NCBI GenBank assembly: GCA_000934665.2
Contig: KZ538145.1
Coordinates: 62,001-121,705 of the forward strand
Length of the DNA stretch: 59,705 nucleotides
Source: Catajapyx aquilonaris
Lineage: Eukaryota
Reading direction: 5' to 3'
Part shown: positions 11,832 to 57,700 of the stretch, one piece after another
How the letters are laid out: each line of letters opens with the position of its first letter
Position numbering within the stretch: position 1 is the first letter of the stretch
Made by a program: the position numbers and the translations under genes
The notes under the pieces: generated by a model
Database searches by the model: none
Seen by the model: only the letters and a program-made list of their open reading frames with translations
Told to the model about the DNA's origin: nothing

Positions 11832-12033
11832 CACCTAACCTACCTTCCCAGCGAATACACACCTAACCTACCTTCCCAGCGAATACACACCTAACCTACC
11901 TTCCCAGCGAATACACAGTGTGTATTCGCTGGGAAGGTAGGTTAGGTGTGTATTCGCTGGGAAGGTAGTATAGGTGAGTATTACACACCTATACCACCTT
12001 CCCACCGAATACACACCTATCCTACCTTCCCAG
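11832..12033. repeat. 28-bp unit array with an internal inversion (3 forward, ~2 reverse, ~2 degenerate forward)
   Basis: CACCTAACCTACCTTCCCAGCGAATACA x3 (11832-11915), then reverse-complement copies from ~11918, then degenerate forward copies to ~12033. Confidence 0.92.
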
Positions 12034-12095
12034 CACACAGACTTGCGCTCAATAAGCTATGGGGACGTCGAAAACTCAACTTTTCGAAGCTAGTG

Positions 12096-21243: not shown

Positions 21244-21376
21244 CGTATCATCAGTCCAAAAAGAATTGTCCCTCGCGTCGAGCGGGGAGCCACGCGTCAG
21301 GATGAAAGCAACCAGTATCCTGACGCGTGGCTGCCCGCTCGACGCGAGGGACAATTCTTTTTGAACCGTTGATACA
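21244..21376. mobile_element. Hairpin (foldback) mini-element
   Basis: 47-bp core arms 21257-21303 and 21317-21363 with one mismatch and a 13-nt loop. Imperfect extension to (C)GTATCA...TGATACA. No TSD seen. Confidence 0.75.
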
Positions 21377-32100: not shown

Positions 32101-33431
32101 GGGAATCTGCCCTGAGGCCAGTGTCAGCGCTTCACGTGTCTAGGACTCACCACACCTTTCCAAATTTGGCAATCGTGGGGGTACCGGCTTCAAAGGGCTT
32201 CGGTAGTGACAGACATCGCCCGCAACAAAAGTCGGGTTGGGTTTTCAAAAACGTCGTGGATACAATATCTACCGTCATACATCGGTCAAGTATGTGTTGG
32301 TCTGAAAAAAAAAATCGAATTCGCTCAATTTTGTGGGGGCGAACTACGATTAAGCTGATTTTTTTTTAAACTTCCCCCCTCTCCCTAACTTCATTGTCAC
32401 GCACGGTCACGCTGGGATAAGTCCCCCTCTAGTACGTTACGCTACTATAAAACCTCCGGTCCCTCTCTAACTTTGCACCGAGCTTCTAAATTTTCGGGTA
32501 CATTTGTTTTATTGCAACTTTTTAGCGTGATGTCACGCTTGGTCACTGTCCGTCACGCTAACATCAGCCCTTCCCAGTGGGTGACATTATTAACGGACCA
32601 GCCCTTAATATCAAACGAAAACCATAGTCTTAGCATATATGGCTCAACATTCCACATGTGTTAAACTAATCGGAAATTTTTCCTACATATGCATACCGGG
32701 CTAAGGCATTAATTTTTATAAATTACAATAACAATGGTAACAAGAACCTTATAAAAATAGTTATTTTGAACTGGAGCCGTTACACAAACTGTGAACTGGC
32801 TAGGTAGCTAGTTCATACCGTAACGAGCCAGACTAACTTGCATAGGTTTTCCGCTGGGAGTCAAATTTCACCCTTGGCTAGAACATCCTGTGCAAAACGC
32901 TTCACGGCAGGAAAAAAAAGTTAGTCTAATGTTACCAACATACACAACCCCCTCTAACAAAAAAAAAAAAGTTTGCCTACTGAGTGAGTTCCGAAAATCC
33001 TGGTCCCAGAACGTCGATATGAAGGTGGGTGGAGCAAACAGCTAAAACACCGTCGCTTGATGCCACGGCAAATCCCGCGATTTACTCAAGTAATTTTCCG
33101 GAAAGACTTTCTTGCGTACCATTACTACCCCCGCGGCTATCGATCACCCTTTAAATGTTTATCCTTCCAGCTTGGGAAGAGAAAAGAGGGGTGAAAGGAG
33201 GGGGCTACGACAGGGAGAGTTCGTATTTGATGTGCACAAACAGCAAATATTTGCATTCAGGCTGCCACGCTTTTCTTACTTTCCCCGCACAAGTTTGATG
33301 GTAAGTTTAGTCACATCACAACATTTCTATTGGTATAAAAAGTAAAGTTTCTTGTATGTATGTACGGGCTACCTGCTAGGCTACTGAGAGTGCTGTATGT
33401 ACGGGCTACCTAACTCACTTCTAGACTACTG

Positions 33432-33707
33432 ACAAGAGAACGACCAAGGTCGGACGCCTCCGATTTGGTTGAAACTCGCTTGAGGGGTCAATCATGTGCG
33501 ATAGACACAGTGGTGAAAGTCATAGATGCCACTGTCCATCCGTTTCCGAGATATGAGCGGCAGAAACATCCGAATTTTGTACTCATATCTCGAAAACGGC
33601 TGGACAGTGACATCTAAGACTTTCACCACTGTGTCTATCGCACATGAGTGACCCCTCAAGCGAGTTTCAACCAAATCGGAGGCGACCAACCATGGTCGCT
33701 CCCTTGT
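33432..33707. mobile_element. Foldback element, ~126-bp arms, 24-nt loop
   Basis: Left arm ...CGCCTCCGATTTGGTTGAAACTCGCTTGAGGGGTCA...GAGATATGAG is mirrored by CTCATATCTC...TGACCCCTCAAGCGAGTTTCAACCAAATCGGAGGCG. Termini and TSD not resolved. Confidence 0.8.
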
Positions 33708-34811
33708 GAGAGTGCTTAAACTTGGCGCACTGATAGCAAACCGGACAGTGAGTCCAAAAAAGTCAGAAAATCCCGAATATTTGGTAATATGGCCAGTTTT
33801 GGACAAATTTCCACATTTTCATGATGGCTATACAGCAGTAGGCCTATGTGCTGTCTTAGCCTAGCCACTCTGTAAAGCGCCATCTAGCAGGCAAAAAAGG
33901 AAGCTGGGAGAATAAATAAAATTTCAAGTGCTCTCCCTCTCATCAACACAGTAATGATTTGGGTAACGAGATTGACCGTACTTGAAATCAGTTATGAAGC
34001 CCGCCAAAAATGCACTTGGGCCCCGGGTTAGAGGGCACCGACACGTAAACCGGGCTTGAATTGCAACGAGTTTTTAATTGCTCGATCATCGGGATTTGGC
34101 GATTAGCCCAGCCCACCCCTTTTATCCCCTTTTTATTTTGGTGACTGCGCCCGGTCCCCCAGCTTTGCCGCCATGATGCGATTTGTAAACCACAATTCAT
34201 CGCAGGGGACGGATTTAAATGCATGTTGGGCCTCATTATTCCAATGACACTGCTGGCACTCGCAAAATCACACAAGAACTCGCGGCATTCAAGATGGAAA
34301 AGGACCCTGAAAATTGTTAACTGGCCCGCAGTCGGTATATTTGTCACCTTGCAAGTCCCAAAGCCTAATAACACGCGTTGGACCCCTAGATTGATAAGAC
34401 CGCAGAGGGCCATCAAAGTGCCAGCGACCAATGAGAAATATCCTCCGATTCTACGGGACGAAGCCAGCAAAATGGCGACCTAAGTTTGTCTCCAGAAGGC
34501 CTAGCCTAATTTACGTCCTGGTGCAAAAGGGGTGGAGTGGGTGGGTGGGGGATAATAATCCTAGGGTTTGCAACTACCCTCTTAGCATCCCGACATGGAA
34601 ATTCTATAACCCGGGGAGTTTCCCATCGTTGTCACCACGGTAACACCATTTTCAGAGCCCGACCCGTACTTTCCACGCTTTTAACGTCACAGGCCTGACT
34701 TGAATGTGGCAATGAACCTCAAGGATTAATGCGAAAGACGCGCAAGTTCGTCAAAATTTAGAATTTTGTATACAGTAGAATCGTGTCAATAATTGTCATA
34801 ATTCATGATGA

Positions 34812-35565
34812 TTTCATCCTAGGATGACGCAACCCAACACTCTTTGCATAAGGCTGGAATCATGGTCATAAAATACTAAGGTCTGGACACTCCCACCTAC
34901 CCCCTGCCGGGCGTTTTGCAGGAGGTGCTCACCTGAGAGCGCCATGAGACCTTTCACTGCACTGTTATGTGGCGACCCTACCAGACTACGCTGAACTTTA
35001 TAGGTACAAAAGGGAAGCGCTACATTGGGGGACCCAACATGGTCGCCGGCGGTCACCCCCCGATGGTATCTCCACCTTATCGTGGTGGTGGGGTTTGCGT
35101 TTCTCCCATGACCCCAAGAGCTATACCGGCGGTAGCTTCGTCTACTGGTAGGGCCACCCAAGCCGGACAGGTCTTTGGGATAGGAGGCAGACTAAGAGAG
35201 ATGCCAGTCTTTCCTCTCTTCTTTTTCCACTTCGTTTCTCCCTCCATCTGTCCCACCTTTGCTTCTTCTTACAGCCAGATAGGAGATAGCCACAGTTGCT
35301 TTGGCTTCTTCCAAATAAACCAAACCAAACCGCCGGCGGTCATGTTGGGCCCGCATTAGCGCTTCCCTTTTGTACCTATAAAGTTCAGCGTAGTCTGGTA
35401 GGGTCGCCACATAACAGTGCAGTGAAAGGTCTCATGGCGCTCTCAAGTGAGCATCTCCTGCAAAATTCCCCGGCAGGCGATAAGATAAGAACGTAGAGGT
35501 AGTGTCCGGGGGCAGGCTGGAATGATTCCAGTGTGTTCGTTGGGTTGCGTCATGCCAGGATGAAA
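34812..35565. mobile_element. Non-autonomous element with ~240-bp inverted arms
   Basis: Arms ~34812-35053 and ~35329-35565. The core GAGAGCGCCATGAGACC...GGGAAGCGCTA is essentially identical in both orientations; identical MATLPDYAELYRYKREAL ORF starts on opposite strands confirm this. TSD unresolved. Confidence 0.85.
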
Positions 35566-38098
35566 CATCCTTTCCTGGCTAGTTGTTATATCATCCTGGG
35601 GTATAAATCTATCCCTCTCCCCCTCCCCCTAGAGATGTCAACGACAAGTAGGTCGCATGACAATGCGACAGTGGCCACATCAGCAGGACCCTGCAGTAAT
35701 GAGAGGTGGACTATTTGGTTGCATGGTTGGCTGCCTGCTTGCACGAATCTCCCATAGGACTTTTCTGGCTGGGGGAAGCCCTGGCATTTTTGCCCTCCGC
35801 CCAAAAGTTAATTCGGTCCTTGGGGCACTCGGCAAGCATCCTTGACCGGTGCGGTGCACTAAGTGTGCAGAATAATCCAATTGGCCATCCCCTCTACCAA
35901 CCCTCCCACTCTCAATGCCCCCAGAGACTCGTGGCTTGCCTTGTAAAGATGCCATTGCAGTCCTGGCATCCCTGCCGCTACAGGACCGCAATACGCTAAA
36001 GTGACACTTATTTATAGCGTTATTACTATGTGGACCAACTCTAGGGACAACTCTATGAAATTAAATGAGCCTCTATTAAGCTAATGAGCGCCAGTGTGTG
36101 TGAGGGTTTCAAGAGGCCCGCTGGTTCGGATCCATTGGCACTGCAAGTTTTCCTAAATACACTGTGGTTTGATGCTGGAGATTTTTTTTGGGGGGGGGGG
36201 TGTAGTTGTAAATGGGGTAAAGCTTGTTGCAAAATGCATAAGCTTCCCGTACAAAAATAAATGCGCTTACTTTACTAGAGCCGTGACCTGAATAGCATTA
36301 AAAATTTATTGGGGTGTAATTACAGTGCACTATGAAATATTTGGGTGGTGCCAATATGATGGATGCAAGCTTAGGGGCATTGAATCGTAAATGTAAAGTT
36401 TGAGAACGGTTTGTAGGGTGGTTTTAAGGGAATCCATGCACCTCTGTGCGACCACCGCCTCTTCAATACACATTCTAGGCAAACTCAGGCCCGCCAGGAA
36501 AAGCCCAAATGCAAACTTGCCTTTCGTAGCGGAAGGAAAGGTGGAAAAGACAAAGGACCACAAAATCTGTGAGCAAACATTTGCGGGTGCATCCTCCAGT
36601 AAGTGTCTCTTTTCCAACAACAAAAAACTAGGATTACCCCTCCAAAAAAAAAATCGGTTCTGTACCAAGTAGGTCAGCTGGAAATGGCAGGTAGAGTAGT
36701 TAGTCCGTAATAAGGTAGAGATTCTCCACCCTCTTCTCCTGTGCTCTCTAATGTGCAGTCATGCTTCGTAAGTGAAGAGACCACTTGAGTTCGGCGGACA
36801 AAAGCGGCCTCAATCTAGCTGCCTTCCAATGGGGCTCCCTCCCGACTTGAAAGTGCTTTCGGTCAAGTTCAGTCTTTTGGAGGTCCCAGCAAAAAGAACC
36901 TGCTGGAGCGGATGGGCCTTCTTTTTTTATCTTTCACGAGACATTTTCCTCTAAGCGACCACTTTGCCATTGCAACGTTACCAGACAAAAAAATAATGGC
37001 GATAAAAACGGCGAATTAAATACATCCCCGAGGGTCTCTAGGCACGAAACCTTCTGGGAAATCCATCTGGATATGGCGCGGGAGAAAAATTAAGTCGTTC
37101 ACGCAAAGACCCGTTTTTTTTTTAGACCGGATTTTAATTAAAGGAATACGATAATAGCCTCTAATCAAGAATCTTTCATGTCTGATAACTGCGGAGGGAC
37201 GATGCCATTCGTGAGACCTACGCCACTTATCGCTTCCAGATCGTGTCTATAATGTCACATTAAAAGTCACGGCTAGTTTTCATAATATAGAAATTCAATT
37301 ACGAAGGCGCTGACTAAAAATAACCGTTATTTTCTTAAAGCGCTATACTGCTAGATCATACATGCGAAAGACAAATAGGTCCCAACTTGCTGCAGATAAA
37401 CGTGACAATTTGTGAATGTGGCGCGAGTGCTGGCGGCATGCGGTGTAACGAACCATACTGTGACTAGGAAACAAGATGGCGGCTGGTCGGCCTCAGGAGG
37501 CTCCTTTAAAAGAGGGGGGGGGGACTGGCTGACTGTGGGGAGGGAAGAAAAGGGAAGGGTCCCTGGCAGTGACACGAGAAGCATCACCCTAGAAGTTATG
37601 GCCCGCAAAACGAGCGACGCCAGCGGCCGCCAACCCAAAAGCACCGGGGCCAGGGGACACTACGCGGCCAGAAGCACAAGAAGAAGGAAGAAAACGGAAA
37701 AAAGGAAGGTATGGTCCAGACGCAATTTCTGGCCCGGATTTTCCAGGCGCACACCAGAATGGATTCCGGAGAAGTTGCGAGTCAATAACAGATGGCGGGA
37801 CTCGAAATATTGGCTGTCGGAGCGGAGGTCATATGAGGTGTGTCGGACGATAAGGCTTATGGAGGAAGCCATAGCTCACCTGTCAACTGTCACCTGCACC
37901 TTGACCAGTTCTGTCACAAGATTGCTCCTGTGTCAACCTCGTTTTTTTAAAAAAATCCCTACTGTAATTCATGTACCGATTCAGGAGATAGTACTCAGGG
38001 ATCAACAAATAGTCTACGGTAGGCTACTGACTTCCACTGTAATTGGAGGTGGTAATTTGTGATCAACAAAAACCGCCTACAAGTCAGTACTGTAAACG

Positions 38099-38722
38099 AG
38101 TAGTATGGAAAACCTTGCCCTTATGCCAGTCCGGAAATTTTTTACATTTTTAAAATTACGACCCCATTGCCCCCCCCCCCCCCCCCCNCCAATGATAACA
38201 CCATTTTACCACTCAAATTTTCTGATATTTTCTACACACATGGATGGGGCCAAGGATAAGGAAGGAAGGCTGTGGCCTGTTGTACGGAAGCGACCCTGGA
38301 ATTATCCTGGGGGGACCATGGAAAACCACAGAAAACTACGGTCAGGATCGCCGGGCCCGGGAATCGAACCCAGGACCTCCCGATTAGCAGTCGGACTCCT
38401 TACCAACTACACCAACCTGTTTCGGTTCAGTCCGGATATAGTAGACCTTGAACGGGCACACTTCGGATATAGTAGACCAGAGTGCCACGCCAGATGGTAC
38501 CTGACGTTATTTTGACGACGTTTAACGTCCATTTCACGTCAAGTGTAACGCCTATATTGTACCGTTGAGACGATAGTTTGACGTGAAATTGACGGTTAAA
38601 AGTCGTTAAAATAACGTCAGGGATCATCTGGCGTGGGGCTCTGATCTACAATATCCGATGTGTGTCCGTAAAAAGGTCTACTATATTCGGACTGGAATAA
38701 GGGCAAAGTTTTCCATACTACT
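38099..38722. mobile_element. Palindromic mini-element with Polinton/Maverick-like ends (~323 bp without the nested SINE)
   Basis: AGTAGTATGGAAAACCTTGCCCTTATGCCAGTCCG ... CGGACTGGAATAAGGGCAAAGTTTTCCATACTACT. 6-bp TSD TAAACG at 38093-38098 and 38723-38728. ~143-bp arms with a ~35-nt spacer (38543-38577). The paralogous empty site near 47718-47724 has a single TAAACG. The Polinton assignment is inference. Confidence 0.8.
38136..38427 (-). mobile_element. tRNA-derived SINE (family A), nested
   Basis: Minus strand: A-box TGGTGTAGTTGG, stem-loop CCGA-CTGCTAA-TCGG, B-box GGTTCGATTCC, body GTTTTCTGTGGTTTTCC. 9-bp TSD CAGTCCGGA (38127-38135 and 38428-38436). Confidence 0.9.
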
Positions 38723-39600
38723 TAAACGATATTTGACGTCCGAGTCGGTACATGAAACGGTGTACTATTTTCAAGTCAGCACATCTAGACGGCGATGGGC
38801 TACTAAGTCAGTACTGCAGATGGTATTTCTTGGTTTCAAAATACCATCTCCAAATCGGTACATCAAATTGATACATGAATTACAGTATATTGATAGATAT
38901 CTGCCAGTTATATATTTCAGTACACCCAGCCAGATACACATACATGCACGCACCCACACATGAAAGGGAATATAGCCGTGATTAAAACGATGGCTGATTG
39001 CGCTGCAAGTCCAGACTGACCGACCCGCATACTGTGTGCATATGTGTTGTTTTTGCCCGTGATTAATTGGCGCCGCATCACGCCCAGTGATTTACGATAA
39101 TGGCTCCCCTCGTATAGCGTGTGTTCTTACATGGATGGGGACTACTCCGCCGGTGTATAGTATATATATAGGCCTGGGGATGGAGTCGAGCGAAAAAGCT
39201 CTCTTTTTATCGCGAGGGCATTGATGTTGCAGCTGTAAATTAGAACGACGGGGGCGACGGTTTGCGCCGCGTTTGTGGCAAAATGGAGTGCACGGAGTCA
39301 TTCACGGCCCATTTCCCGCCCTCATCACTCCCTTCTTACACTGCACAAGACAACCCCCCCAAAAATACCTACAAAACAGGCCCAAATGCCTATTTTGTCC
39401 AGTTTACAGCACCTGCATCTTACAAGCACACAAGGGAACATCAACACACTCGCTATACTCCACTTTGATCACTTTCAATTAGGGTGGAAGCTTTAATCAT
39501 GCGCAATCAGCAATTACCTAAATATTGCTACTATCTGCAACAATGGGACGTAGACCAGCAGTAATGGTGGAAATGGACAATGCTCCTTATTCGTAATATT

Positions 39601-39835
39601 TTTATTTTGTTGTTTATTTATTTATTTCATACCCCGTGCTAGAGCCCTTGGCTCCCTTAGGGGGGTGGATTACCCCCATTGGATGGGACCAGGGATAAGG
39701 AAGGAAGGAAGGAAGCGCGGGGGACCATGGAACACCACAGAAAACCATGGTCAGGGTCGCCGGCCCCGGGATTCGAACCCAGGACCTCCCGATTAGCAGT
39801 CGGGCTCCTTATCCCCTACACCAACCTGCTTCGGT
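39601..39835 (-). mobile_element. tRNA-derived SINE (family A)
   Basis: Same head and body as the other copies, A-rich tail. 16-bp TSD CCTTATTCRTAATATT (39585-39600 and 39836-39851, 1 mismatch). Confidence 0.9.
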
Positions 39836-47648: not shown

Positions 47649-47851
47649 CCGTCCAATTCATGTACCGACTTGGAGGTGGTATTTTGTGATCAACAAAAAC
47701 CGCTTACAAATCAGTGGTGTAAACGGTATTTGACGTCCCAGTCGGTACATGAAATTTACATGTAATGTACTCTTTTCAAGTCAGTACATCTGGACGATAG
47801 GCTGCATCTCTTGATCACAAAATACCATCTCCAAGCCGGTACATGAATCGG
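47649..47851. mobile_element. MITE, uninterrupted relative of 37962-38885
   Basis: ATTCATGTACCGACTTGGAGGTGGTATTTTGTGATCAA ... TTGATCACAAAATACCATCTCCAAGCCGGTACATGAAT inverted ends. Internal sequence is collinear with both halves of the 37962 element. Confidence 0.8.
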
Positions 47852-53213: not shown

Positions 53214-54252
53214 GGCTGTGGCGTCTCCACGAATGCAAGAGCTGTCAATACCAAAGTGGGTAACGCCGAAGTATGATTCTCCGTATGCTCTGGCGTTCAT
53301 TCCAGCCAGCAGAAGGAATCAACGACCGTCAGCGTGAATCCATACCGAGCCGGAGATGCGAGAGACGACGATACCGGACACTAGATGGCGGTAAATATGG
53401 GGAAAAAGGACAGGAAGAAAAAATATGATTACACCGTGCGGCCTTTCATCAGGATAAAAAATAAACCAGTATTTTGAGATATCTGCGTATTATTTCTTGC
53501 AGGCTATTTTCATCCTCTGCAACAATATGCGAAGTTGGATGTCCCTTTCAATTAGCGAGGTGGATCGTGGATGTTCGATATGAGTGTACTTGTCACAACA
53601 GTAATTGAAATTTTCAATATTGCCTTTTCATCGTCGGAATTAACAAGGCAGAGTGGAACCAAGAAACCAATACAGTAAATTAACCAGGCTTTTTATCATT
53701 ACTGGAATTGTACAGGGTGTCCCACAAGGCTGGGAGCATAGGAGTTTCTTATTACATTGTTCTATCTAGTACATGGTTGCCATCATGTACGGTATATTAT
53801 GTATAGGCCGTCCAGGAAAAGACTACATGGGTTTTCTGGGGTTTTGAAGTAGAGTTGCCACTATAAACACAGAGGTCTATATTATAGACGTCACTAGTTT
53901 TGGGAGCTCTTGGTTATCCCATAAAATACTTCCTCTTCCCAGCACAGGTGTAGTTGTCTGTTCCATGTTATGGTAGGCCATCATTTTTACACCATGTAAA
54001 ATTTTATGCCGCAGAAATTTTTATGTTATACAGTATTGAAAATCTTACGTATACCATGGGAAGGATCCTTGCTATAGGATTGAGTTTTGAGGTGTACAGT
54101 GCCACGATAATTTTTTATTAGAAGTTATTACGAAGATGAAAAAGTGAAACCCAGTTTTTAAATATTTCTTTTCCGAATAGTGAAAACCTGGGCTAGAAAT
54201 TTCAGAATTTGCAACTTTTCTGCATTAAAAATGACCACATAAGGTACTAAAA

Positions 54253-54340
54253 CAGAGGTTCCCAACCTTTTTCGGGTCGCGACCCCCTTTTATTATAGTC
54301 GAGTAACTTGCGACCCCCCCCCCCCCCNCCCCCCCCCCAG
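54253..54340 (+). mobile_element. Orphan hAT-like left end
   Basis: CAGAGGTTCCCAACCTTTTT...GCGACCCC resembles Charlie-group hAT termini; no partner end seen. Confidence 0.45.
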
Positions 54341-54543
54341 TATTGGTATCGCGATGAAATCTCCTATAAATTCTTTTCATTTCTGTAAAATTTTGGTAAT
54401 TTTTTAATTTATAAAAATTAACTAAAACTTGTCAAAATTTAACGCGACTTTTTATGGCAATTACAAATGGCAAATTTTTGAGTCTCATATTGTTCACCAA
54501 CAATTATTTCAATCAAATTACAAATACGCATATTATGCATGCA

Positions 54544-54609
54544 TGTTACTTTTATAAGGGAGAAGTGCGCATGCTGCAGCATGCGCACTTCTCCCTTATA
54601 AAAGTAACA
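54544..54609. repeat. 66-bp perfect palindrome with TGT...ACA ends
   Basis: TGTTACTTTTATAAGGGAGAAGTGCGCATGCTG|CAGCATGCGCACTTCTCCCTTATAAAAGTAACA, no spacer. Confidence 0.92.
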
Positions 54610-54653
54610 ACCCATTTGAGGTGTTGCCACATAGTTCAACAATGCACTATTTA

Positions 54654-54795
54654 CCGTATTTGACGGCATATGAGACGCACCCCCGTTTCAGCGGATAATA
54701 TTCAGTAAGAAAAGTTAATTATTGTATTTTCGCATATGACCCTGGGCGATTTTTAATGCCATATTTGGGGGGGGGGGGAAGTGCGCCTTATACGG
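54654..54795. mobile_element. pogo/Tigger-like MITE remnant
   Basis: TA|CCGTATTT...ATATGAGACGCAC ... GTGCGCCTTATACGG|TA; right TIR partly deleted. Confidence 0.62.
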
Positions 54796-57700
54796 TATTT
54801 TGTTAAATATAAGTTGAAATGAAGGATATAGACTCAAAAATCATTGTCAGACAAATATAATTTAAAATTATGGCAATTTCATAGTGCCTTATGTGGCCAT
54901 TTTAAATGCAAAAAATTGTCAAATTCTCAACTTGCAAGCCCAGGTTTTCACTACTCACACAATAGATATTTAAAAACTGAGTTTAAATTTTCATATAATA
55001 TTATCAAGAACAACATCCAATTAAAATTTCGTGGTTCATCGCAAATCAATTCCAAAATAAATCATTTAAACATCTGGAGGAAAAATTATTTGCCATCAAT
55101 AGTCCACAGTTGATAGCATTTATATTTCAAAAATCCAGTGTCAACTACGTAATGTGAAACGGTTTTGTCGCAGTTTCACTATGTGACCAATAATTGGGAC
55201 GAAAAAATTCAATTAGGCATGCAGGAAACAAAGGCAAGCGAAGTCATGAATACGCAGCAAAGCCTGAACAGGGTTGTGAGGCCAATGGTTAATAATTATT
55301 GCCCTGTACCGTAATATTACTTGATGGAGTAGTTACACTGGTCTGTCACATTATAGTTTAGCCGACATTAATCAGCAGCGCTTCACTGTCAGCTTGTGTT
55401 TAAATGCACCTTTACTGCTCGCTCCAGTGGGCTATAACTAAGTAGTTTGAAACAAAGTTATGCGCTTTCGTATTATCCATGCATGTATTCAATGTTACAA
55501 TAATGGCGACAGGTTATCTAATAAAAAAAGGACCGTTGAGGCCCGCATCGAAAGAGTTTATAAAATTTTTAATTACGAGCTGATTCAGGGCCCTCATGAT
55601 ATTAAGCCGGGGTTCGGTCCCACTGATTCACAGGTGTGGACCCAACGAACAGTAAAGTTGTTGGGGCGGGCTGTTCTGCCATATCTTCCAGCACTCTTCA
55701 ATTCTCACTTTTGGTTGAGAAAGCGCCTTCCACTTGATCTGCGGCACATCCGGTCTTAAAAGCATTAGTGGGGCCCCCAGGCAGCAGAAGCAGCAGCAGA
55801 AAAGAAGGCAGAAGAGTCAATATGCAGCTCAGAGAATAGCACAGGTTTGCGAATTTAGAACCGGGAGTCCCGCATACAATAGAGTACACGCAGCCCGTCT
55901 ATCCATCTGTCCATCTAACCCTTTCCTTTTTTTTTCTAACAGTACGTCCCAAAATAAACGAAGTCAATTATGCATAACGGAATTCTGCTGGTCGGGTGTG
56001 TACATGCAGGATGTTTGTTATTGCAGGCCAGCTTGAGGCTAGTTTCCATAAACAGTCCTGCTCAAATTAGAAAGCTTCTGTGCTGCGAGAGCACTCAACT
56101 TCAAAATGGAAGTATGGAAATGAGACTTTAAAAATAGGCGCGATGAGTGAAGGTCTCACTTTCACATGACGAGTTAGTATGTGTGGTATGCTGCCATCTG
56201 GCGGCCATCAGTATTTCCAGTCTTCAATAAATTAGACCTAATCCTAGTACTATGCAACGTCTGATCTTCTCTCGTAAAATATACAGGCCAGTCCAACGAC
56301 CTCCACACAACTCTATCGATACAAACCCTACGATTGATCCATCGGCTCAATTAGGCTTCCTCTCATCAGCCATTTGGATTCTCCTCTTGTATCACGCAAA
56401 CTTGCTACCTATTTTCAACCTAACAACCTAATTGAGGGGTCTCAGATCAAAAGCGACTAAGTCCATTTTTTGGGGGGTGTAACACAAATACGTCCAGAAA
56501 TAATGTATTTTAATGTCATTGGGTATTAATTGCACATTTGCTTATGTAGCTGAGCCGTGGCAACATATGGACGCAAAAAGTTTCAAGATTGTACCAGTTA
56601 AAGTAAAGTAATCAGCAGTTTTTGCTCATTTTACGACTTTTTGGACTTAGCCGCCTTTGACCTGATTGCCTCAACAATATAATCAAAAGAATATGATCAG
56701 CCTAGTTTTAAACTGCAATTACTTTTCACATGTTCTGCTGGCATTAACCTGGGCTTCACTCGCTATATAGTAGGTATACCTGATATGACTTTGAAAAACC
56801 GTCTGGACAGCCCGAGGCATCGCCACGTTGGAGCAATTGCACCAGTTAATCGAAAACAGTTTTTGTCTCGAAAAACCGAGTATGAAATCTTCCGCTTAGG
56901 GCTGGAGTCCGCTAGGTACGCGCCTTCATCAATAAACATTTCAAGCCCACCCTTGAATGAGATTATAGCCAGGGATTGACTGGTAGGAAGTCGCATTTCT
57001 TAAGCCAGCCTTTTCCTCCTACCGCCCCCCCCCCCCCAAAAAAAAAAAAAAAATCCGGACTGGATCTTCCCAAGCGTGGTGTTGGGCTTACTAATTTTGA
57101 CTGGATCTAGAGGGTCCCCAGAAAGCCGCAAAAACCACGCCCTGACTTGACCCTGCTGCAAGGTTTGCTATAAAAGGAGAGAAAAGTCAGCCATGCATCA
57201 AGTCCCCAGCCTGTACTCAAAGGCAAAACCTATCTCGTTTTTTTTTTTTTACCCGTGTGCGCGCCCCCATTGGCACATGTTGGCAGCTTGATGTTTGCCT
57301 CATTATTTCCATTAGCTTAATTAAGGTCCCTGGAGGTAGCCCCATCAATAATGTCTAGCGGACTGCAGTTGGAACCTGACAAAAGAGCGGAAAGGGACAC
57401 GCGACCCCACCGGCTCTATACCAGCACTTACAGTTATCAACATGACCGCAGTTTGTGGGCAGGGAGACTACAAAACCTACCTCTTGTTGTGGATCGGAAA
57501 AGAAATAATTACCACGGATCCATCAGCAGCCAGAGGGAACCCTGACACTTGCGCGGTTATATCTTGATTCCCCCTGCTTTTCCTTCAGATTAATCAATGG
57601 CATCCTAATCGCCAAAAATTACACCCCGCGATCACTCTCTGTCCATCATATATACAGCAACAATCATTTTATGTCACACGCAACAGGTAGGGGCAGCCCA

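Follow-up and report, generated by a model that had tools for sequence, protein, structure and literature searches.

A family of gene-free, miniature inverted-repeat elements built of Polinton/Maverick sequence in the genome of Catajapyx aquilonaris

The 59,705-nucleotide stretch of Catajapyx aquilonaris DNA analysed here (contig KZ538145.1 of assembly GCA_000934665.2, positions 62,001 to 121,705 of the forward strand; hereafter the window) contains, at 38099-38722, a palindromic member of a family of non-coding elements that have the size of miniature inverted-repeat transposable elements (MITEs) and are built of Polinton/Maverick sequence. The ends and the core of these elements are of Polinton origin, the family has inserted repeatedly, and its insertions duplicated 6 bp of target. 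Insertion in trans by an integrase of the genome's own Polintons is likely (probability about 0.8), because 6-bp target-site duplications (TSDs) combined with 5'-AG ends are the Polinton signature, according to the passages of the literature cited here and below (PMC6839031; PMC10045372; PMC3014272). The visible footprint is that of an integrase only, and a dependence on the Polinton polymerase pPolB is putative.

Structure and insertion of the element

The window copy opens with AGTAGT (38099-38104), closes with ACTACT (38717-38722) and is 624 bp long, or 323 bp after removal of a 292-bp insert and one 9-bp repeat. A first-pass annotation of the window had described a hairpin element of ~323 bp with these ends and a 6-bp TSD, consisting of ~143-bp arms around a ~35-nt spacer, and all of these features were found in place. 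Once the nested short interspersed nuclear element (SINE) is removed, the 143-nt arms are identical in 125 of 145 aligned columns (86%), with 35 nt between their inner ends. The fold of the fragment 38428-38694 has z = -20.5, and none of 200 shuffles was equally stable (0/200). It should be noted that the window is rich in other palindromic repeats or repeats bounded by terminal inverted repeats (TIRs; 11832-12034, 21245-21375, 33429-33710, 34909-35470, and 54140-54991), and a hairpin form alone is therefore common in this genome. The repeat reported to occur twice in the left arm does so, as a 15-mer at 38433 and 38464. No open reading frame (ORF) of >=150 aa overlaps the element, and the 8 ORFs of at least this length in the window yielded no Pfam family.

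The element resides in an unrelated host MITE, a relative of which aligns across the insertion site and has one TAAACG only, at 47720-47725. The window copy is therefore a true insertion that duplicated TAAACG, as the first-pass annotation had argued; the empty site is compatible with both a 6-bp and an 8-bp reading of the TSD.

Target-site duplications and extent of the family

A genome search with the uninterrupted right 295 bp of the element returned 105 matches (40 of 84 candidates scored), and a search with a query from a second subfamily returned 83 (40 of 78 scored). The internal 15-mer occurs 124 times in the genome versus 0 times for its reversed control. The 100 listed matches to the 15-mer represent 62 loci by hand count, 7 of which were later excluded as not belonging to the family, which puts the family at a minimum of about 55 loci, with a larger number probable. 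The excluded 7 have the 15-mer but weak arms; 6 of these resemble a related repeat and 1 resembles chance. This second repeat (L106, L107, L112, L113, L120, and L121) has the same 15-mer unit in different neighbouring sequence, and no AGTAGT pair was found near the 15-mer at the 6 loci of this repeat that were examined.

Dozens of loci have an identical architecture at 68-91% identity to the window copy, with a missing terminal hairpin, a 31-bp unit, an array-derived spacer, and an inverted inner arm. AGTAGT stands at both ends of the window copy and of many other copies. Of the 17 copies with a TSD, 13 measure 254-374 bp and the others up to 798 bp. Ahead of one copy on contig C2578 (L042:896-1855), the 31-bp unit has expanded to a tandem array of ~700 bp.

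Element ends were called by two flank-independent rules on overlapping sets of loci. Under the first, both ends were called in 36 of 70 loci, with an exact 6-bp TSD in 9 and a 6-bp TSD with <=1 mismatch in 16, compared to 0.4% in a control of mismatched flank pairs. Under the second, ends were called in 43 of 84 loci, with 8 exact 6-bp TSDs and 17 with <=1 mismatch (control, 0.2%), and all 17 differ from one another. TSDs of 7, 8, or 9 bp were found in 0/36 and 0/43 end-called copies. Across the end-called copies, TSD length has a sharp peak at 6 bp and none at 7-9 bp, in keeping with the first-pass call of 6 bp.

These data bear on a different reading of the termini, which the first-pass annotation had retained as a caveat, namely that the ends are GTAGT/ACTAC and the TSD is 8 bp, as in MITEs of the hAT, P, or Merlin type. 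The window copy by itself fits this reading in 7 of 8 positions, and the outer T and A that it requires are somewhat enriched among the copies with 6-bp TSDs (7/17 and 6/17). However, both outer bases are present together in only 2 of these 17 copies, their enrichment fits a weak target preference, and the large elements described below end precisely at AGTAGT with 6-bp repeats. The 8-bp reading is thus rejected, and membership in the hAT-, P-, or Merlin-type MITEs, with their 7-9-bp TSDs, was rejected by the counts of 0/36 and 0/43.

Polintons of the genome and the origin of the miniature elements

Genome searches yielded 29 matches to pPolB, 22 to the integrase, and 16 to the capsid of Polintons. 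In this assembly of 20,583 contigs, the sequence of most Polinton copies breaks off at the TIR. One element (C1904:1714-21377), which encodes pPolB, an rve integrase, and a double-jelly-roll (DJR) capsid, has AGTAGT ends, ~340-bp TIRs that are 99% identical, and a TSD of 6 bp. A second (C2571:18240-30826, from L141:8240 to L143), likewise with an AGTAGT terminus, encodes an rve integrase, an A32 ATPase, a DJR capsid, and pX. The two have the same gene order, and their integrases, capsids, and ATPases are 74%, 72%, and 75% identical, respectively. At the position of pPolB in C1904, C2571 has IAP-like frames (BIR, BIR, UBA, and RING in four ORFs). Scans of 13 frames of C1904 and 14 of C2571 revealed no adenain-type protease. 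Each lineage has, at the start of its TIR, a hairpin (~150 bp in C1904; 196 bp, z = -15.4, in C2571) that starts about ten bases inside the element end (L073:1723-1870 and L141:8250-8445), with no significant sequence similarity between the two hairpins. The terminus of C2571 recurs at 10 loci at 87-100% identity over >=252 nt. Moreover, two ends of the C2571 type on separate contigs share one 6-mer, as would be expected of the two sides of one insertion.

Some further features of these large elements were observed. In the Polinton integrases (L074:1447-2697 and L142:4002-5261), a PLA2-like domain stands at the N terminus and a weak chromodomain match at the C terminus, and the pPolB of C1904 has an Endonuclease VII-like match. 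PLA2-like, pX, and IAP genes have been described in adintoviruses (PMC8502044). A third element of ~17 kb (C3697:6555-23648, L066-L068) encodes pPolB, an integrase, and a frame of 1839 aa between different, repeat-rich inverted ends.

Each arm of the miniature elements is composed, from the outside in, of a Polinton terminus (~30 nt), a motif that follows the hairpin in the Polinton TIR, and a motif of an intergenic array. Copy L057 agrees with the C2571 terminus in 30 of 30 positions at each of its ends, and other copies match variant ends of large elements in up to 29 of 30. In the second part (38466-38493), 24 of 28 positions agree with the stretch of the Polinton TIR that lies immediately interior to the hairpin, a match that, with an E value of 5.3 on its own, is meaningful by position only. 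The miniature element skips the 196-bp hairpin of the TIR and resumes at the motif directly after it. The spacer and inner right arm match an array on contig C10925 in 63 of 77 positions (E 2.1e-11, scaled to the whole genome), and two further copies match the same array in 57 of 70 and 59 of 70. This segment lies ~700 bp after a pPolB gene, in an array 80-96% identical to that on the ATPase side of C2571. The motif adjoins the 3' end of the ATPase gene and scores 60, 58, and 45 on C2571, C11287, and C5564, with shuffles scoring 27-32. The right half of the miniature element is collinear with the right part of a Polinton minus the ATPase-integrase-capsid block and the TIR hairpin.

The link to Polintons proposed in the first-pass annotation consequently rests on direct identity to Polinton-type elements of the same genome together with a family-wide 6-bp TSD. 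Its description of the element as little more than the cis-signals of the TIR did not hold, since an internal intergenic array is the source of both the spacer and the inner arms, and the hairpin of the TIR is absent. It had also proposed a search for large elements sharing the terminus and encoding pPolB, integrase, ATPase, and capsid; C2571, with its rve integrase, ATPase, and capsid and its identity of 30/30 to L057, answers to this in part, but gave no tblastn match to pPolB, and no long element with the window terminus was found among the near-matches examined. A BLAST comparison of the element with 40 stretches (39 around pPolB matches and one of C2578) returned chance matches only, and the parental match came from loci found through integrase and capsid. 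C1904 was rejected as a direct parent, as it shares only 9 terminal bases and its array-motif score is at the level of shuffles, although a different short repeat array occupies the equivalent intergenic position in it.

Elements of intermediate size are also present. On C1636 (L210:7900-8569), bases 1-252 of the TIR are joined directly to the intergenic array, and C10029 (L214:1198-2789) carries a non-coding near-palindrome of 1.6 kb with a hairpin-type TIR and a 6-bp TSD. The genome thereby holds a size series of 19.7 kb with pPolB, >12.6 kb without it, 1.6 kb, and 0.25-0.8 kb. The flank of the C10029 element recurs on C3252, C7409, and C8135, which suggests one insertion amplified within another repeat.

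Mobilisation of the family and alternatives

In the mechanism suggested by these features, a retroviral-type integrase would, very probably, recognise the AG...CT ends and make a staggered cut of 6 bp. With moderate probability, the founder may have arisen by an internal deletion followed by a fold-back duplication of one half. The latter is suggested because the array motif is in a single orientation in C2571 and absent from its TIR but is in both arms of the miniature element. The putative copying step, to which slightly better than even odds are assigned, would have the protein-primed polymerase of a helper start on the AGT repeat, with the stem end of the folded palindromic strand mimicking a Polinton end. 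This step follows the standard model of Polinton replication, in which copying is protein-primed. Alternatively, the elements could move by integrase-only excision and reinsertion.

The size series and the mirroring of several different large-element ends by terminal variants of the miniature elements would also be compatible with there being no propagating family, each copy representing the in-place collapse of a full-length Polinton that left its ends and TSD behind. This is improbable, because independent collapses would not repeat identical junctions and an identical inversion, as the dozens of loci with one architecture at 68-91% identity to the window copy do.

A related question is whether the sequence, although derived from Polintons, currently depends for its movement on some other transposase with TSDs of 6 bp. 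Besides the IS3EU/GingerRoot type, a group of hAT elements has TSDs of this length. Such families exist (PMC10045372; PMC6839031), and no exact helper of the window subfamily was found. Nevertheless, one subfamily is identical in 30 of 30 positions to the ends of an integrase-encoding Polinton lineage, and Polintons combine 6-bp TSDs with 5'-AG ends, whereas other integrase relatives with 6-bp TSDs have TA or TG ends (PMC6839031; PMC10045372). IS3EU and GingerRoot elements, in particular, have 6-bp TSDs and termini of TA..TA or TG..CA rather than AG..CT (PMC10045372; PMC6839031). Movement by such a transposase is therefore quite improbable. Membership of the element itself in IS3EU/GingerRoot was rejected on its AG..CT termini.

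Several observations weigh against insertion by a Polinton integrase in trans or against parts of the derivation given above. First, pPolB was not found by tblastn in C2571, the lineage whose ends match the family, and the assembled portions of C11287 and C5564 show its arrangement of IAP-like frames too; because IAP-like frames replace pPolB in these three copies, a lineage of this type would need the polymerase of another element. The full-length, pPolB-bearing C1904 has, beyond the 9 shared terminal bases, no significant DNA similarity to the family. Second, the window subfamily matches large-element ends in only 20-22 of 30 positions (the window copy in 22 at best, the first 14 being exact), and searches for its terminus gave 4 exact matches and 15 at <=2 mismatches, all of them outside long elements. 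This subfamily may be older, or may be served by an unassembled helper. Third, the array motif scores at or below about the level of shuffles in 18 of 23 contigs, with C1636 and C3000 marginal (both 35), and C10925 is a short contig with its TIR unassembled and no TIR sequence in its 2.2 kb. Part of the motif is additionally present nearby on C10925 in inverted orientation (27/32), and the inversion could therefore predate the miniature element. Fourth, 20 of the 36 loci with ends called under the first rule, and 26 of the 43 under the second, have no 6-bp TSD; several of these are plainly mis-called at the inner repeat and others are decayed. Finally, identity between the arms of one copy reached or exceeded the best identity between copies in only 5-6 of 17 copies; the arms of a copy are no closer to each other than to the best-matching arm of another copy, which gives no indication that hairpins are corrected copy by copy.

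The integrase of resident Polintons acting in trans is still preferred. A more far-reaching and rather doubtful possibility is that the family represents defective-interfering satellites of an endogenous Polintovirus, in which the array would have been kept, from ~3.7 kb inside the parent and beside the ATPase gene, because packaging or replication requires it in cis. If this were true, the 323 bp would constitute a natural minimal map of cis-requirements (end, post-hairpin motif, and internal signal), and an element that folds as a whole into a hairpin could do without the terminal one.

Other features of the window copy

The coordinates of the element, its parts, and its surroundings are given in Table 1. 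The nested insert interrupts the left arm; its similarity to SINE copies is confined to 38195-38426, and 38136-38194 contains a poly-C run with an N at 38188. An intact relative of this SINE, called as tRNA-Ser, is located at 39758-39829 of the window. In the left arm of copy L004, a SINE of the same family abuts a 31-bp unit, as in the window, which could reflect either a target preference or coincidence.

Table 1. Features of the miniature element and its host repeat (window coordinates).
Feature	Position	Strand	Remark
Host MITE, unrelated, receiving the element	37960..38887	.	
Left TSD, TAAACG	38093..38098	+	Single copy in host relative at 47720
Miniature Polinton-derived element	38099..38722	.	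624 bp with insert, 323 bp without
Left terminus, AGTAGT start	38099..38128	+	22/30, first 14 nt identical to Polinton-type ends on C8381/C1636
9-bp duplication from nested insertion, left copy	38127..38135	+	Right copy 38428-38436
Nested tRNA-derived SINE insert (292 bp)	38136..38427	-	Homology 38195-38426
Two 31-bp units holding CGGATATAGTAGACC	38428..38493	+	
Inner left arm, inverted copy of array-derived motif	38494..38542	+	
Spacer and inner right arm	38537..38613	+	63/77 to array downstream of pPolB, C10925:1394-1466
35-nt spacer between arms	38543..38577	.	
Right arm, ACTACT end	38578..38722	-	
Right 6-bp TSD, TAAACG	38723..38728	+	
Host-MITE relative with empty site	47653..47851	.	Single TAAACG at 47720-47725

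Relation to known elements and implications

By the comparisons made here, the element is a non-autonomous Polinton derivative that behaves like a MITE of a Polinton; its length of 323 bp and its lack of ORFs of >=150 aa rule out an autonomous Polinton. It resembles Polintons/Mavericks of the adintovirus type in its 5'-AG ends, 3-nt tandem repeat, and 6-bp TSD, and in its identity to the ends and intergenic DNA of elements that encode an rve integrase, an A32 ATPase, a DJR capsid, and pX, with pPolB in relatives. It differs from them in being 323 bp long, gene-free, and nearly all palindrome, and in lacking the TIR hairpin of its parents, Polintons being 15-25 kb in length (PMC6431247). Classical MITEs are likewise small, TIR-bounded, multi-copy, and dependent on a helper, but the probable helper here is virus-like and self-synthesising. 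In their palindromic form, the elements may also be analogous to the snap-back defective genomes of viruses and plasmids with linear DNA.

Non-autonomous Polintons (the 'N' families of Repbase) share with the present family a non-coding or gene-poor content, Polinton ends, and 6-bp TSDs; here, the parent lineage, the internal source segment, and size intermediates are traceable in one genome. Kapitonov and Jurka reportedly described in 2006 short non-autonomous elements of the sea urchin, of ~0.5 kb and with long TIRs, and small size alone is probably not new. In C. elegans, TIR-only insertions represented by Polinton_CE_TIR (744 bp) have a Polinton end without genes but, in the text cited, are treated as TIR remnants tied to rearrangements and not as a dispersed, two-armed family with TSDs (bioRxiv 10.1101/2024.01.15.575659). 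According to the passage cited from a lizard study, non-autonomous copies are apparently lacking there (PMC3014272). A sub-kilobase, two-armed Polinton family was not found in the literature searched, with Repbase, Dfam, and supplements outside its scope. Nor did the literature examined describe an anatomy traceable to three parts of a parent, a lost TIR hairpin, or an internal array that was retained.

To our knowledge, the excision, replication, and integration of Polintons are described by models and not by direct demonstration, and the sequences that act in cis have yet to be mapped. A gene-free element of ~300 bp that is traced base by base to three parts of its parent provides a short substrate for integrase and polymerase assays, and its anatomy suggests that the 196-bp hairpin of the TIR is not needed for insertion. 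Further, the size series within one genome documents how such passengers may arise. For genome annotation, the results show that Polintons can be the source of palindromic MITEs that are unclassified and have AG ends with TSDs of 6 bp. If the likely borrowing of the integrase holds, the family would represent an unusually small passenger of Polinton elements.

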